The notes beneath the pieces are model-generated. The model saw nothing but the letters and a program-made list of their open reading frames with translations. It did no database searches and had not been told where the DNA came from. The translations under genes were made by a program, and so were the position numbers. Of a DNA stretch of 64,000 nt, positions 2,668 to 9,221 are shown one piece after another. This stretch comes from Trichodelitschia bisporula (taxonomy: Eukaryota). The stretch covers positions 1,382,691 to 1,446,690 of the forward strand of contig ML996689.1 of NCBI GenBank assembly GCA_010356995.1, given 5' to 3'. Position 1 is the first letter of the stretch. Every line of letters starts with the position of its first letter.

Positions 2668-3851
2668 ATGGCTGCGCAGCAGCAAGATTTGCGTCTCGCC
2701 GTTCAATCGGAGCGCGACCTACGGGCTGCTTGCCCTGTCGCGGTGAGCTCAACGGTGTACTTTCCGCGCACCAAGTCAACGTGGAAGATTGAGAGGCGCG
2801 TGGTCATACCGCCGAAGCTACCCATCAGTGGGTTTTACGCCCTGCCGCGATACTGGGCGCCACGCCTCGATGTCACTGGCGTCGAGTACCTTGCGCGCTG
2901 TATCACGGATACTGGTCCGGGCGCTTCCATGGTAGGGAAGGCTGCCACCCTAAAGGTCTATTTGACGTAAGGGCACCCCTCTTTCTACTTGCGTACGCTA
3001 ACAGATCCCAGGACGCTAGAAGCGGGCTCCAAGGCTATCCCAACGGCTGCCATCAACGAGCTGCGTGCTCTAGACCAGCTTCGCATTAACCACTCCCGCC
3101 ATGCTCCTCATTTGATTGATGCAAGACTGGCCCGCGGCGAGGGCAACAAGCAGTACATCACGTACATCCTGATGCGGGTTCCTGTCGGCCATCGCCTGGG
3201 CTCAACGCATGAGTTTGCCGCCGACAGGTTCTGGACGCTGTCCCAGAGGCATCGGGTTGCGTTACGCAAGCTCTTCAACCTTGCACTGATGTATGTCCAT
3301 GACTCACCACTACATATGTTTTATTGTGCCCTGCTAATTCAGATTGGCAGGGATATCATCCGCTGTGGTGTGTACCCGATGGCATTCCACCCGAAGGACA
3401 TCATTTACAACAGGAACAACCAGACAGTGTGAGTCCAATTCGAAGCCCGTGGTTCTGTGCTTCATCAGTACCCTTCTAATGCGTAAAATGCAGGATCATC
3501 ACTGGGTTCGAGCGGTCACGCACTTATGCGCCGATCTACCGCAACCTCGATCTCGATAACCCACAATACAGCTTGTACTGGGAAGACGGCCATCTATTTA
3601 ACTGGGGTCTAATAAACCATCCTCCCAAGTACGTCGAGCTGTTTTCGCGCCGTCCTTGTGACGGTACGCTCTTCTACGCTTTACCGAAACGGCACCTTAA
3701 GGATGCCGACGAAGCATCCTACCCGGATCCGCAGCGAAAGACTATCGAGCAGCGCATTGTTTATCAGATGCGCCAGGGCGACAGCAACATCCCCCTGGTC
3801 GCATCCATGAGCAGTCTCGCTAGGTCAATGAGTCGCCACTCGTTGGTTTAA
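2668..3851 (+). CDS. Fungal protein-kinase-like (probably pseudokinase) orphan protein
   Basis: Introns 2967-3011, 3291-3350 and 3429-3493 join the ORFs into one frame. Kinase-like order of motifs: TLKVY (beta3 Lys), AINELRAL (alphaC Glu), YITYILM, GVYPMAFHPKDIIY, IITGFE, WGL. Confidence 0.6.
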
Positions 3852-4531
3852 TCCAACAGAGCTGACTCCCTGCTGTGGATCGGGAGAGGCCGGACAGTTG
3901 GGTTCGGGGCATGGGGTTTATTGAGGTACGCAAGTAAGCCAGTCAACATTGTGTCGGCATTCCGTTGTTCGACTGCGTTCTCTCCGAGCGCAAACAGTCG
4001 ATGTTCTTCTCTCTATAAGGTCTTCAGGTTCCGTAGTGCGTTTCGTTCATGTTCGATAGTGCATGTATGATGATGGATGAGTGGCGGATACTGGGTGTTA
4101 GGCGTTGAGTCGGTCGGTTCAGCGTATACCCCTCTTTCCACTACCTTTACCCTCTTCGTCTGCGTAATGGTCCTTCACCACTTGATGTGGCTCGCATTCG
4201 CAATGTCCATGATCAATGAATCTCTCAGTTTTCGTCTGTCTCCAGTCCCCGTCGATGGTTATGGCAAAATCAAGTGCCTTGGCTATTAAAATCTTTTCGC
4301 ATTTCACCGCTCGCCCAGGGCGAAGCCTCGCCCAACCCTACCTGAAGACTTACATGAGAACTAGCCCCAAGACTTGCTAAAGACTGATTAACCATATTGG
4401 TTTGGTCCTAACTAACATCTCCCCTAGAACCCCCCTTCTCCCCGAGCCACCCTTCCGCTCCTCTGCGCGCCTGTCAAACTGGCGCCCGTGGCGCCCGTCG
4501 GCCTCTTCTCACCCCACCAACGGGTGATCGT

Positions 4532-4579
4532 GTCAGCACGGATTACGACGAAGCTGACCGCTTGTATCTTGAGAATATC
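4532..4579 (+). pseudogene. Isolated 48-nt fragment of a carbamoyl-phosphate synthetase large subunit (URA2/CAD-type)
   Basis: Translates to [16 protein letters not shown], against the recalled CPSase motif [20 protein letters not shown]. The flanks are unrelated and a stop follows three codons later. Confidence 0.8.
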
Positions 4580-4644
4580 TTGCTAGGATGACAAACTTGC
4601 AAGAAAAACAGGCCGACAATATTGCCCTCCACTGGGCCATTGGG

Positions 4645-4704
4645 ACGATTGACGACATCATCTAGTTCTTCGTCACCTACATGAAGAATGATCGCCTCCC
4701 TACT
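4645..4704 (+). pseudogene. Isolated 60-nt fragment of a fungal RNA-dependent RNA polymerase (SAD-1/RrpB-like), with an internal stop
   Basis: Translates to TIDDII*FFVTYMKNDRLPT, against the recalled RdRP segment VTVDDITSFFVTYMKNDxLP just downstream of the DLDGD motif. TAG at 4663. Confidence 0.7.
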
Positions 4705-5029
4705 GGGTCCTCAGCCTCGGGTGCCAGAGTCCACCAACGTTGCCCCCTTGTATTTCCATCTCTGGAGAAGAATCTCCCGCCATGAAGTTCAGCTTCGGGG
4801 CGAGCAGCTTTGCTCGCTGCCCCCGACCCCGGGGGGGAGGGGACGGGGGCGGCAGCCGGTGAATCCTGCCAAGGTGCAGGACTTCCTCAACCGCTGGAAT
4901 CGGTCTCCGCAGCAACCTCATGATGCATCTGTGAGGCAGTTCGCCTCAACGCAATGGCTTCCGCACACCGGAACCGCGCGACATCTCCCCGCAAATCAAA
5001 TCTCTCTCCACACCCTTCATCCACTCTAT

Positions 5030-5319
5030 CACGATGCCTCGTTATTCTGCGGCTTTTCCGCCGTCTTTCCGGGGGGAGGGGGGGGCGGGCTCGCAGATTC
5101 CATCGCCTCGCTCGCACCCGCCGGGCGCTCGCCGGTCCGCGGGCAATCCGCCCCCGCGCACATGCCCCTCTCCCCACGATGCCGCGGTATTCAGCGGCTT
5201 CCCGCCATCTCGTCGGGGGGCGGGCAGGGAGGGGCTCGCAGATTCCATCGCCTCGCCCGCAGTTGATCGGGTGGGCGCTGGTCCGCGGGCAATCTGCCCC
5301 CGCGTACTCGCCCCGCTCT
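5030..5319 (+). repeat. Two imperfect GC-rich direct repeats (period 145 nt), a relic of a coding repeat
   Basis: Copies start at 5030 and 5175. They share CACGATGCC, GGGCTCGCAGATTCCATCGCCTCGC and GGTCCGCGGGCAATCYGCCCCCGCG, and both encode MPRYSAA..GSQIPSPR..VRGQSAPA. Confidence 0.9.
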
Positions 5320-5810
5320 GATGAAAAGGCCCGGCGCATCCGCCCAACAGACACTATCAGCGTCGACATTCACCTGGGAGTACGAGCTACTCCGTGCCAC
5401 TCCAGTGCGCTTCAAAGAGATGATCATCGACCCCCCTCCCCCGGACCGAAGGGTCTCAACCGGCCCGTTGTTTACCTGTCCTCTCCCCACTGGGGCGAGG
5501 ACCGCTCGGGCCGTCCCCGACAGGGCGCCTGTTTGCCGCCCCAGCGCCGACCAGATCTTCGTCAACATCACGCAGAAGTCGCCATCGCTGTCCGCCTATC
5601 CCAAGGCGGCGCGTGTCCCCTACTCGTCGCCGTCGGCGGCACAGAGCTGGCTTCTCTTCGTCTCTCACCGCGGACTACCAGTCCCCTCCACAACGGCCAA
5701 ATCGGCCACTGCTGGCGCGCCCCTTCGATGCCTTCAGAGGGGGGGCGGTGGCGTGCTAGGACATAGGCTTCAATACGGACACTTGAGACCCTCAAAGGCC
5801 TCATCCAACC

Positions 5811-5888
5811 ATCTACTGCCTGTACTGGCTGCAGACCAATCAGTGCCGCTACGAGTGGGGGGTATCCGGCTGCCGGTACATCCATGAA
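5811..5888 (+). pseudogene. CCCH-type zinc finger in a stop-interrupted frame
   Basis: IYCLYWLQTNQCRYEWGVSGCRYIHE is C-x8-C-x8-C-x3-H with typical aromatic residues. In-frame stops lie upstream at 5757 (TAG) and 5784 (TGA), with no ATG between them and the finger. Confidence 0.6.
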
Positions 5889-5949
5889 AGTCCGCTATAT
5901 CATGCTGCAGGATCCGGAGAGAGCACACGAGCGCCCGTTAATATACTGT

Positions 5950-5988
5950 CTTGTTATCGGCGCTACCAATCGCCCTGATTCTGTCGAT
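5950..5988 (+). pseudogene. Isolated 39-nt fragment of an AAA+ ATPase (sensor-1/SRH region, Yta7/Cdc48/Rix7-like)
   Basis: Translates to LVIGATNRPDSVD, against the AAA signature VIGATNRPDSxDPALRRPGRFD. No Walker A/B motifs or arginine finger in the flanks. Confidence 0.8.
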
Positions 5989-7069
5989 CTGGTCTTGCAG
6001 CTGTTGTCTACAGGATTGAAGTGGTGAATATAGGATGGCGGCGAACTCATGGTCAGCTCGGTTGGTTTATATCCTGAAGATATACTCGTGTGGATATACT
6101 GGCGGTGACCACGACCAAAACGGTGACCACGACCATCGGTCTCATCACTACATTGACGTGGCTCTCGACCATTATATACTGGAGCGCAAACGCGGCTCGG
6201 AGAGCTTGCCGGCTCGGCTCTCGACAATATGGTCGCTGCCATTGAAAATAATCGGTTTTATACAAGAGGATCCGGGAACAGAGCCTGCAACAAGAGATTG
6301 AACTCCTCAATACCGCCCTAAGCTTCAGGTAGACGATGACTCGCCTCACCACATTGCTATACCTCAAAATGCCTCCCTACAGCATGACGCCGTTATAATC
6401 TGGGGTACTAGTGTCAGCATTTATAGGGAATAGCGACTTGAGGGCCCCAAGCTTTGCCGGTACTTGAGCTCGAACCAGCACAACGTGTCTCCTATAGTCA
6501 GCGAACGTCATCCCGACGGCCACGGCTGCCGGGCCTAGCCAGACGATGACTGCGACAGCTGGTCCGAGGCCAGATATCTGTTTTGCAGTGCTGCATTCTT
6601 TGAGCATTGTCGCGCTCATACCATCAAGAAGCGCCTTTTAAACTGCTTCTTCGGGATTTTCAACGACTTGGCCAAGGTCCGGGATCTCGAGGTCCAGTTC
6701 TTCAAGAACCCGTACCATACCGTGGATCGTGACGATATAGAGTGCCTCGAGTCTAAGTAGATCGTTTGCGCTTGAGGCCGACAACATCGGCACTCGGTAG
6801 ATATATTCGACGTTGGTATCATCTGTTTGTAAAGTAGATTCAGTTATCAAGATAATTTCATTGCCATTGTTCCCCCAGAAGTATGAAATGCCCAAGGTAT
6901 CGCCAGTTCAGAACGCCGTTGGCAACCATAACTCCATCACCCAGGTGACGCAGATAAACCCCATCCAAAATCAAACGCCGCCAATGCCGCTCTCGCTCAT
7001 GATCCGTTAACCGTCATCAATCCCAAATCCCAACTATACAATCCCATATCCTACACCCCATCGGAAAGT

Positions 7070-8410
7070 CTACTCTTGCCATCCCCAAGTCCTCCTCAAC
7101 TCTCTCATCCGTGGGCTAACCTCCTCATTTGGCCTGACATACCCAAATGGCTTAACCGGCGGATCCAATCCTAAATTAGGCCTCCCGCCATTTTGACCCA
7201 TCGATCCCCTTCGACTTCCCATCCTCGAACTCCCTTCCCCAGGATCATCAACAAACGGCTCCCCACCATCCGCCAAATCCACCTCCTCATAAATCGGCGC
7301 ATAAGTCCCGACACTCCCACTCCGCCGGCGACCTCTCCGCGCCGCCATGGCCGCCGCACCGGAAGCCGATGTCATCGCAGGCACAAAAGGCGCTGACCCG
7401 GGATACGCGCCGCCATTCGTGCCCGTCCCAAAATCGAACCCGGAATTGGGACGGAACCCATTGCCCGTAGGCAAGAGGCTTTGCATCTCGGGTCTTCTGT
7501 TGCCAACACCGGCCTTAGGCGCGTAGGGTGTGTACGCCGTGGGTCCGGACGGGATGTTGGCTGGTTCTGGAGGAGGCGTGACGGGTGGATCGTAAAGGAA
7601 GGCTTCTTGGGGGTAGACGCCTGGACTGGAGGGGCGGGGTTGAGGGCGCCGGCGTCGGAGGAAGTAGATGGCTGCGGCGACGGTGAGGATTGCGGCGGAG
7701 ACGATGCCGATGACAACGCCGGCGATTACGTGGCCGGGTATGGCGTGACTGGGCTGAGAGGTTTGCGCGGGGAGAGGTACGCCGGTTGGCGTGGATGAGG
7801 ATGACGATGACGACGATGCTGATGTCGAGGTGGATGAGGATGTTGTCGAAGATGACGTAGAAGACGAGGCTGAGGATGTTGTCGAGGATGTTGATGTCAA
7901 AGATAGCGTCGAAAACGAGACCACCAGTGACGAAGGGGTTGCAGAGGACGGCATCGTCGGCATAGCGGTACTAATCGCCATGCTCGCAAAGGCACTCGGT
8001 GTGAACAGCGTCTGTGACTCAGCCGACACGGCATCCGCCAGCGAGCTCGGCTGAAGGACAGATACGCTTCCATCATTTGACACAATGACCTCGAGCGACA
8101 CCGTCGGGTCGAGCGACTGGATCACCGATGCCAGCGCTGCCGCCTGGTCTGATGGTAGCCCCACGATGACGAGGTCGGGGCCGGCGGTAGTCGCTGCGCC
8201 ATCTGAGGAAGGAGTAGCTGATGCGTCGGATGCGGGTGTAGATGCAGTAGAAGCTGCTTCGGAGAGTTGACGGGCTGCAAATGCTTTAGCAACGCTTACA
8301 GGACCATCCGGCGCCATCAATAGCTTACCCTTGAGACCTGCTCCCGCGACAGGTTGTGGAGTTAGGGTGATGCTAGCGAGAAAAGCGAGGAGCGCGGGCG
8401 AGTACCACAT
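7070..8410 (-). CDS. Type I membrane protein with Ser/Thr-rich ectodomain (Mid2/Wsc/SKG6-like architecture)
   Basis: Single exon from ATG 8410. Signal peptide MWYSPALLAFLASITL, long S/T tract, TM helix VIAGVVIGIVSAAILTVAAAIYFL followed by RRRR, and a cytoplasmic YPQEAFLYDPP. Confidence 0.8.
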   Translation of the reverse strand: MWYSPALLAFLASITLTPQPVAGAGLKGKLLMAPDGPVSVAKAFAARQLSEAASTASTPASDASATPSSDGAATTAGPDLVIVGLPSDQAAALASVIQSLDPTVSLEVIVSNDGSVSVLQPSSLADAVSAESQTLFTPSAFASMAISTAMPTMPSSATPSSLVVSFSTLSLTSTSSTTSSASSSTSSSTTSSSTSTSASSSSSSSSTPTGVPLPAQTSQPSHAIPGHVIAGVVIGIVSAAILTVAAAIYFLRRRRPQPRPSSPGVYPQEAFLYDPPVTPPPEPANIPSGPTAYTPYAPKAGVGNRRPEMQSLLPTGNGFRPNSGFDFGTGTNGGAYPGSAPFVPAMTSASGAAAMAARRGRRRSGSVGTYAPIYEEVDLADGGEPFVDDPGEGSSRMGSRRGSMGQNGGRPNLGLDPPVKPFGYVRPNEEVSPRMRELRRTWGWQE

Positions 8411-9221
8411 CGCATCTTGTTTGCAACGGGATACGAAAGATGGAAAGGCTCCCAACGAGCAAGAGGAAATCGACAATAGAGCAAAATAAAGAGACGGCAC
8501 TGCGATAGACGGTAAAACTATTTAATGATTTGTGGAACGTTGCGCCGCGCGCGAGGTGGCGACGGAGACGTTGATGAACCTCGCGCCAACAAGGCCAACG
8601 GCCCGCACAACTCGTCACCCCCCCATCCTCCCCTCCATTCGGCAGGGTAAAACATGGGGCTTAGCGGGCAGTTTGTTGGGGGGCTCAAGTCGAGAGCCGT
8701 GGCGCAGCACGACTTGAGCGCAGATCTGGCCAACGACATTGATGAGAGGGGCGAGCGCCACATGTCGCTTGCGCGTTGTGTCGATGTAGAGCAGGGGGGT
8801 TATCAAAGGTTGCGGCTTGGGAGATGGAGACTAACTTTAGTCGCTATCTTCGACTCTTCCTGTGGCTGTTGGTAATTTGCTTGGGAATCTTGAAACAATC
8901 GCTGACCAACAGGCCGGGTCAAGTAGGATGGGCCAATAGCGCTGAGGGGATAAAAGTACGCAGCTGCTTACCTAGGCCGCACGGCGCCAAATGTATCCAG
9001 TACGTACCTCATGTCTAGGGTACTGTGTAGGTAGTTTTACGGTGAGCGATCTCCGGCATATTCGGAAAAGAGGATACCAAGTCTGTGGGTGGCCTTTTAC
9101 CTCCGTAAAGGGTTGATACCTGCTAGAGCTCACTCCTCATACGGATGTACTGACCAGCAATCGAGTGGGATATCGGCTCTAGCATTACGGTAATAATCTT
9201 AACACGCATAGTGCCATTCCT

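Follow-up and report, generated by a model that had tools for sequence, protein, structure and literature searches.

The spacer between two convergent genes of the fungus Trichodelitschia bisporula holds a mosaic of short stretches copied from elsewhere in the same genome, with the donor loci left intact. The window analysed comprises 64,000 nucleotides (nt) of contig ML996689.1 (assembly GCA_010356995.1, positions 1,382,691 to 1,446,690 of the forward strand; positions below are those of the window), and in it a 3.2-kb spacer contains the non-coding mosaic at about 4531-6707 (~2.2 kb). At least seven stretches of 39-75 nt are 85-96% identical to other long contigs of the organism, five of them as aligned matches and two shown by loose ends of contigs (Table 1). 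This agrees with an earlier note on the window, made from its letters, which had proposed a concatenate of short pieces copied from distant loci; high-identity matches of 35-60 nt elsewhere in the genome, whose absence the note had held to count against its proposal, are present.

To identify the donors, contigs of four public sequencing runs of the same organism (X1-X4), chosen for containing 95-99% of the words of 4300-6900, were aligned to 3500-7500 at 80% identity or more. X1 and X2 are of flat depth and DNA-like; the assembly may have been made from them. A second study, on another sample, supplied X3 and X4. That these are RNA is a guess; we treated them as RNA-like on two grounds, namely that neighbouring contigs can differ in depth by as much as ~300-fold and that a GT..AG joint is found in them alone. 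Donor pieces were taken from among the contig matches listed, and their number is a lower bound. The donor contigs (6.7-28.7 kb) have X1 depths of 427-457, compared with 394-445 for the window's own contigs, consistent with single copy, and past each match they continue as coding sequence unlike the window. Rough BLAST-type E-values of the matches, with a 30-Mb genome assumed, range from 2e-7 to 1e-16, and a search for donors inside the window found none.

The seven pieces and one further piece of ~40-47 nt explain all excess depth, the latter being suggested by an excess beyond that of piece 3 in the bins 4840-4973 and 4974-5107 of X1, X2 and X3. The window's contigs break at 4673-4693 and 6449-6464 in all four runs, which, given 31-letter words, implies exact runs shared with donors at ~4664-4702 and ~6435-6478. 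Mis-assembly, which the earlier note had named as a way for its proposal to fail, is unlikely, as junctions are bridged without any difference by contigs of the second study: those of X3 and X4 span 4426-4693 and 4673-6464 with 0 differences.

Table 1. Pieces of the mosaic, associated features and flanking genes (window positions)
Feature	Position	Strand	Length and match	Donor or partner	Remarks
Piece 1	4531-4579	+ (sense)	49 nt, 6 differences	28.7-kb donor contig	carbamoyl-phosphate synthetase coding segment
Piece 2	core 4644-4693; probable extent 4630..4702	+ (sense)	50 nt, 2 differences	6.66-kb donor contig	TIDDII*FFVTYMKND.., in-frame TAG
Piece 3	4852-4926	+ (probably sense)	75 nt, 11 differences	10.3-kb donor contig	coding segment (QPVNPAKVQDFLNRWN..)
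Possible eighth piece	~4950-4992		~40-47 nt		suggested by depth alone
Piece 4	5369-5429	+ (probably sense)	61 nt, 7 differences	18.3-kb donor contig	FTWEYELLRATPVRFKEMII
Piece 5	5549-5616	+ (sense)	68 nt, 7 differences	10.7-kb donor contig	DQIFVNITQKSPSLSAYPKAAR
Piece 6	6426-6492			copy of well-expressed locus	loose ends at 6426, 6492 in X1-X4
Piece 7	6669-6707			different locus	loose ends at 6669, 6707 in X1, X2
AAA+ ATPase motif	5950-5988	+		PDB phmmer: CDC48, NVL, Rix7, p97; best E 0.01	LVIGATNRPDSVD
3′ UTR intron	3926..4427	+	502 nt		GTACGC ... CTAACTAAC ... CCCCTAG; joins upstream gene's 3′ UTR to mosaic
Tandem duplication	5030..5318	+	two ~145-nt units, ~80% alike		non-coding
Upstream host gene	2669..3851	+			ATG 2669, stop TAA 3849-3851; introns; open frames 2971-3432, 3480-3851
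Downstream convergent gene	7070..8521	-	483-aa open frame		Ser/Thr-rich single-pass membrane protein; 3′ end bounds spacer

The pieces and their donors

The donor of piece 1 reads as the genuine native gene for carbamoyl-phosphate synthetase (CPSase), either URA2 or the arginine-specific form, since its flanks on both sides (30 letters each, translating in frame as TVMVNYNPET and NLESILDIYQ) read on as CPSase. The motif itself matches positions 48-65 of the Pfam profile CPSase_L_D1 (E 0.17) and residues 603-623 of E. coli CarB in the PDB (E 0.53). The CPSase label of the earlier note was thus right, and the three peptides on which it had built its case (4532-4579, 4645-4704 and 5950-5988) translate exactly as claimed.

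The second of these peptides, in piece 2, had been ascribed to an RNA-dependent RNA polymerase (RdRP). That it was copied from another contig is borne out, whereas a cellular RdRP is a putative donor only: neither Pfam nor PDB gave a match for the stretch at E<=10, and a set of 5.8 billion proteins yielded no longer protein with three words in common. The in-frame TAG of piece 2 begins at the first letter that differs from the donor. Ahead of the core, 4630-4643 aligns by hand to the donor flank with a 2-nt gap, and the piece probably extends to 4630 on this side and to 4702 on the other. An ankyrin-like ‘LHWA’ look here, read in the note as a possible separate capture, is probably a frameshifted part of piece 2, its PDB match being a weak one (ZDHHC17, E 0.15). 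The two other protein-like pieces that the note had been unable to place (PVNPAKVQDFLNRWN and FTWEYELLRATPVRFKEMIID) proved to be copies at the nucleotide level.

For pieces 3 and 4 the sense strand was judged by amino-acid composition. The donor flanks of piece 3 are open in the + frame, and the - frame is open too; those of piece 4 are in frame. The donor of piece 5 is well expressed (contig depth 321 in X3), and its flanks are in frame as LFQCGKYPQA and AYLYYLGKF. Depth arithmetic for piece 6 fits one donor, with an exact stretch that we estimate at ~44 nt (6435-6478), and for piece 7 the extra depth in bin 6582-6715 is just what 39 nt of a single-copy contig would give. The third peptide of the note does match AAA+ ATPases in the PDB but has no donor at 80% identity or more, contig depth in X1 being without excess over 5644-6313; this piece may have a greater age or have decayed further.

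The borders of the pieces seem to be of two kinds. Likeness may fade after piece 1 and before pieces 4 and 5, and it ends abruptly against a G- or C-run before piece 3 (G-run 4831-4843) and after piece 4 (C-run 5431-5443). A G-rich motif (CCGGGGGGAGGGG or its complement) recurs beside or between pieces, at 4828-4843, 5068-5090 and 5431-5445. With one mismatch allowed, GGGGGGAGGGG occurs 10 times in the window, 4 of them in the mosaic, and none of 100 shuffles reaches 10; the recurrent motif could be junction filler or a repeated piece.

The mosaic is not coding now. As the earlier note had it, the interval is without an intact gene: all that it contains is open frames overlapping one another on the two strands, which a GC content of 64% would lead one to expect, and homology searches were near-blank. 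Across 17 frames of the interval, Pfam at E<=10 returned two weak matches only, CPSase_L_D1 (E 0.17, as above) and zf-CCCH (E 0.075). The frame-2 read-through at 4847-5620 has 0 relatives among 1.84 billion protein representatives. None of the 777 candidates for the open reading frame at 5267-5884, and none of the 147 for that at 4412-4591 (compared with longer proteins of up to 2000 aa, below the size of URA2), reached E<=10, and a PDB search with the protein query P0002 gave nothing credible. Further signs of non-coding sequence are the in-frame TAG inside piece 2 and the spread of the pieces over two frames. One gene with tiny exons was ruled out, as the pieces stand in different frames and carry stops.

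Two frames call for separate mention. The + frame at 5787-5978 has the look of a CCCH zinc finger at 5810-5870, with an over-long middle spacing, and is the source of the zf-CCCH match; no donor contig was seen for this stretch, which may be an older fragment or chance. On the minus strand, a frame at 6053-6907 (P0003) is open for 285 codons bar two internal stops and spans pieces 6 and 7. It has no relative in Pfam or PDB. Chance, decay of a former gene, or an antisense orientation of pieces 6 and 7 relative to the rest could each account for it.

Transcription of the mosaic

The mosaic is transcribed on the + strand as an alternative exon in the 3′ untranslated region (3′ UTR) of a minor isoform of the upstream gene. 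One contig each in X3 and X4, and none in X1 or X2, joins 3923 to 4426; with the cut moved by +2 the joint becomes GT..AG, splicing 3925 to 4428 from a donor site 75 nt past the upstream stop codon. The branch point and acceptor at 4408-4427, which the earlier note had regarded as orphaned, therefore close an intron that is in use. In X3/X4, contig depth (a poor measure of expression) is 848/342 over the upstream gene and 240/94 over its 3′ UTR, falls to 2.6/0.79 at 4304-4437 within the intron, and stands at 30/8-14 over the mosaic (4426-6464) and 257/70 from 6449 on. The spliced form has a depth of 29 in X3, compared with 240 for the unspliced form. RNA-like contigs run through the whole mosaic and on into the convergent gene at its 3′ region. 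Contigs being strandless, the sole strand evidence for the mosaic RNA is the GT..AG intron, which is sense. The spliced isoform would be a likely target of nonsense-mediated decay. The locus illustrates that scrap sequence can enter mRNA via a functional splice acceptor.

We considered whether the mosaic is a functional RNA locus, in which convergent transcripts would form double-stranded RNA (dsRNA) and give rise to small RNAs that act on the donor genes, or in which the long 3′ UTR would regulate the upstream gene. The continuous cover by RNA-like contigs, running into the convergent gene's 3′ region, fits such a role; so does the persistence of a 2-kb element in an otherwise gene-dense region, and the exact runs shared with donors, estimated at ~39 and ~44 nt, are long enough for small-RNA targeting. 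However, most pieces are 85-90% identical to their donors, which is poor for targeting by small interfering RNA, and the only strand evidence is sense. No hairpin or inverted repeat was found in the region, and no Rfam family or tRNA in 3000-8000. The changes in the pieces (a stop codon, scattered substitutions) look like neutral decay, and we hold a functional RNA locus to be unlikely.

A bolder version would make the mosaic an acquisition locus, where a reverse transcriptase or other template-switching polymerase adds sense mRNA snippets to an array and convergent dsRNA yields small RNAs that tune at least eight unlinked genes. This we regard as very unlikely. If true, the targets would perhaps include an RNA-silencing polymerase gene, and the locus would be a fungal counterpart of the ‘memory’ of host gene fragments resembling PIWI-interacting RNA (piRNA) clusters.

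Origin of the mosaic

The reading that we prefer, while holding it tentatively, is one old composite insertion, ~10% diverged, that arose by serial template switching of a reverse transcriptase on mRNAs and is now an inert 3′ UTR passenger. A polymerase, most likely a reverse transcriptase jumping between mRNAs, would have moved from template to template, copying a short stretch of each; the composite product would then have been pasted into the spacer, probably at a break, bringing in all pieces together in one event. The mosaic would today be without a designed role, a long and probably unstable alternative 3′ UTR subject to neutral decay.

Four observations, taken together, point to one composite event. 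First, divergence is even over the five measured pieces (33 differences in 312 nt; chi-square ~4.2, 4 degrees of freedom, p about 0.4). Second, no more than about 50-65 nt separates piece 1 from piece 2. Third, the two copies of the tandem duplication differ by ~20% (22 transitions, 18 transversions). This is roughly double the piece-donor distance of ~10% and would follow if the duplication and the pieces are of one age and both copies have drifted from then on. Lastly, the pieces share an orientation. Repeat-induced point mutation was rejected as a source of the tandem-copy changes, which are mixed, and the copies are far too short for it.

Repeated independent insertions, with the spacer as a hotspot that took up single fragments on separate occasions, would suit the less diverged look of pieces 2 and 6 relative to pieces 1, 3, 4 and 5, as well as the seemingly greater age of the AAA motif, with its lack of a donor at 80% identity or more. 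The five measured pieces are, however, statistically uniform (p about 0.4), and separate events would hardly produce a shared orientation, or pieces packed as closely as 1 and 2. We consider a series of separate insertions quite unlikely.

The case for a reverse transcriptase acting on mRNAs, within the composite insertion that we prefer, comes from orientation: serial jumps between mRNA templates would yield an array of sense pieces only, and every piece with a readable strand is sense on one strand. The sense reading is firm for pieces 1, 2 and 5, where the frame is open and protein-like across piece and donor flanks, and probable for pieces 3 and 4 and the AAA motif; in pieces 3, 4, 6 and 7 the antisense strand has open frames too.

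Several findings weigh against this reading. The orientation evidence is thin, with three pieces firm and two or three probable. DNA-like contigs match all five listed pieces gaplessly, so that no exon junction falls within any of them. Inspection of 3852-7072 revealed no A-rich tract, target-site duplication, LINE (long interspersed nuclear element) or reverse-transcriptase remnant, and no direct repeat was found bracketing the region, the latter test being weakened by undefined insertion borders. Signs of age are uneven, in that exact runs of about 39 and 44 nt survive in pieces 2 and 6 and could reflect gene conversion or later events. Some room is left for a function, as the mosaic yields RNA at a level roughly comparable to that of two donor genes (X3 contig depths 23 and 37). 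Furthermore, ~79% of the mosaic is without an identified donor, though this remainder may also consist of pieces, since at ~10% divergence only conserved coding donors would be recognisable.

The gapless matches of DNA-like contigs to all listed pieces, together with the lack of any poly(A), target-site duplication or retroelement remnant in our searches, would also fit a DNA-level templated insertion, where a break is repaired by end joining or by synthesis that invades several ectopic DNA templates in turn. Copy-paste insertions of ~10 bp to >1 kb, drawn from other parts of the nuclear genome, are documented at yeast breaks (PMC12214859). Such repair predicts random orientation relative to donor transcription, whereas the pieces that can be read are without exception sense on one strand. 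The identified donors, too, are all coding sequence, which is partly ascertainment, as only conserved donors are recognisable at this age. We consider DNA-level insertion, including multi-invasion or microhomology-mediated template switching in which each template leaves a short copied tract, a real but lesser possibility.

Capture by a transposon, such as a Helitron-, Pack-MULE- or similar element, ranks as the least likely of the origins considered. Elements of this type take up several gene fragments, often in one orientation, and give chimeric transcripts, and fungal Helitrons with captured genes have been published (PMC4289320). Against this, the mosaic stands at single-copy depth and has no terminal inverted repeats and no repeats in common with the rest of the window; its pieces of 39-75 nt are far below the typical capture length. 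Helitron ends (5′-TC..CTRR-3′ with a hairpin) were looked for by eye only, and none was found. No transposase, helicase or reverse-transcriptase domain was found either, nor any transposon-like domain among the 48 of 133 long window frames scanned.

Precedents and genomic setting

To our knowledge there is no fungal precedent with so many micro-pieces. Nor did a literature search turn up an account of a comparable array in a fungus, which does not prove that none is in print.

The nearest precedent is found in Magnaporthe, whose MINE and WEIRD chimeras are bi- or tripartite retro-sequences attributed to template jumps of a LINE reverse transcriptase (Gogvadze et al. 2007, PMC2104539). The likeness would lie in copies of transcripts joined in a single orientation; these chimeras, too, occur in a filamentous fungus, and many are transcribed. 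The Magnaporthe chimeras differ in having two or three parts, among them a LINE or SINE (short interspersed nuclear element) copy, and specific switch sites, the tripartite one being flanked by 14-bp direct repeats. The mosaic, in contrast, is put together from seven or more parts, each of 39-75 nt and internal to the coding region of an ordinary gene, and neither a LINE part nor direct repeats nor an A-tail was seen in it.

Templated insertions at double-strand breaks of yeast resemble the mosaic in that short copies come to lie at one site while the donors stay intact, and their size range fits (PMC12214859 and PMC11724301). They are, as the former presents them, experimental, made at induced breaks and scored one insertion at a time, whereas the mosaic is a fixed natural array with at least seven donors, all apparently sense, and is spliced into mRNA. 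Helitron and Pack-MULE capture (PMC4289320 and PMC5861414) also yields mosaics of several host-gene fragments and chimeric transcripts; these elements, however, are multi-copy, with defined termini and much longer fragments that contain introns, none of which was found in the mosaic.

The locus thus represents a natural, fixed multi-donor insertion, of a sort otherwise known mainly from induced yeast breaks and from retro-chimeras of two or three parts. Its pieces are numerous enough to address two questions, the nature of the templates (RNA or DNA) and the way in which the junctions arose. There are practical implications too: such mosaics plant conserved-domain motifs (CPSase, AAA+) in non-coding DNA, which may mislead annotation, and they break assembly graphs where exact words match donors (4673-4693 and 6449-6464).

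The window as a whole is gene-dense, fungal and of ~54% GC, with housekeeping genes throughout. A Pfam scan that took in 48 of its 133 open frames of at least 110 aa identified an ISWI-type SNF2 ATPase, an OBG GTPase, a ubiquitin-conjugating enzyme, ribosomal protein S19e, WDR3/Utp12, ARPC2, an ALG9-type mannosyltransferase and GET3/ArsA. The gene upstream of the mosaic is predicted to encode a small kinase-like protein (APH/Kdo/RIO), a label drawn from ESM Atlas features alone; Pfam gave no match for it, and a PDB search with its exon returned nothing credible.

Related loci were sought in metagenome contigs. The last exon of the upstream gene retrieved none. Three of 80 loci found via the short-chain dehydrogenase/reductase (SDR) neighbour (L001-L003) carry proteins 56-63% identical to those of neighbouring genes in rearranged order, and have no nucleotide match to 3852-7072; being this distant and rearranged, they are uninformative on conservation of the mosaic. 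In L001 (1590-3281 and 4004-5643) an orthologue of the downstream gene, with the same C-terminal motif, adjoins the SDR gene as it does in the window, but its convergent neighbour, ~0.7 kb away, is a different one, an M20-type peptidase-like gene. Finally, at 2383-2572, ~100 nt 5′ of the ATG of the kinase-like gene, a 19-nt unit is repeated in about ten head-to-tail copies (71-100% alike), which may be a promoter or leader repeat.

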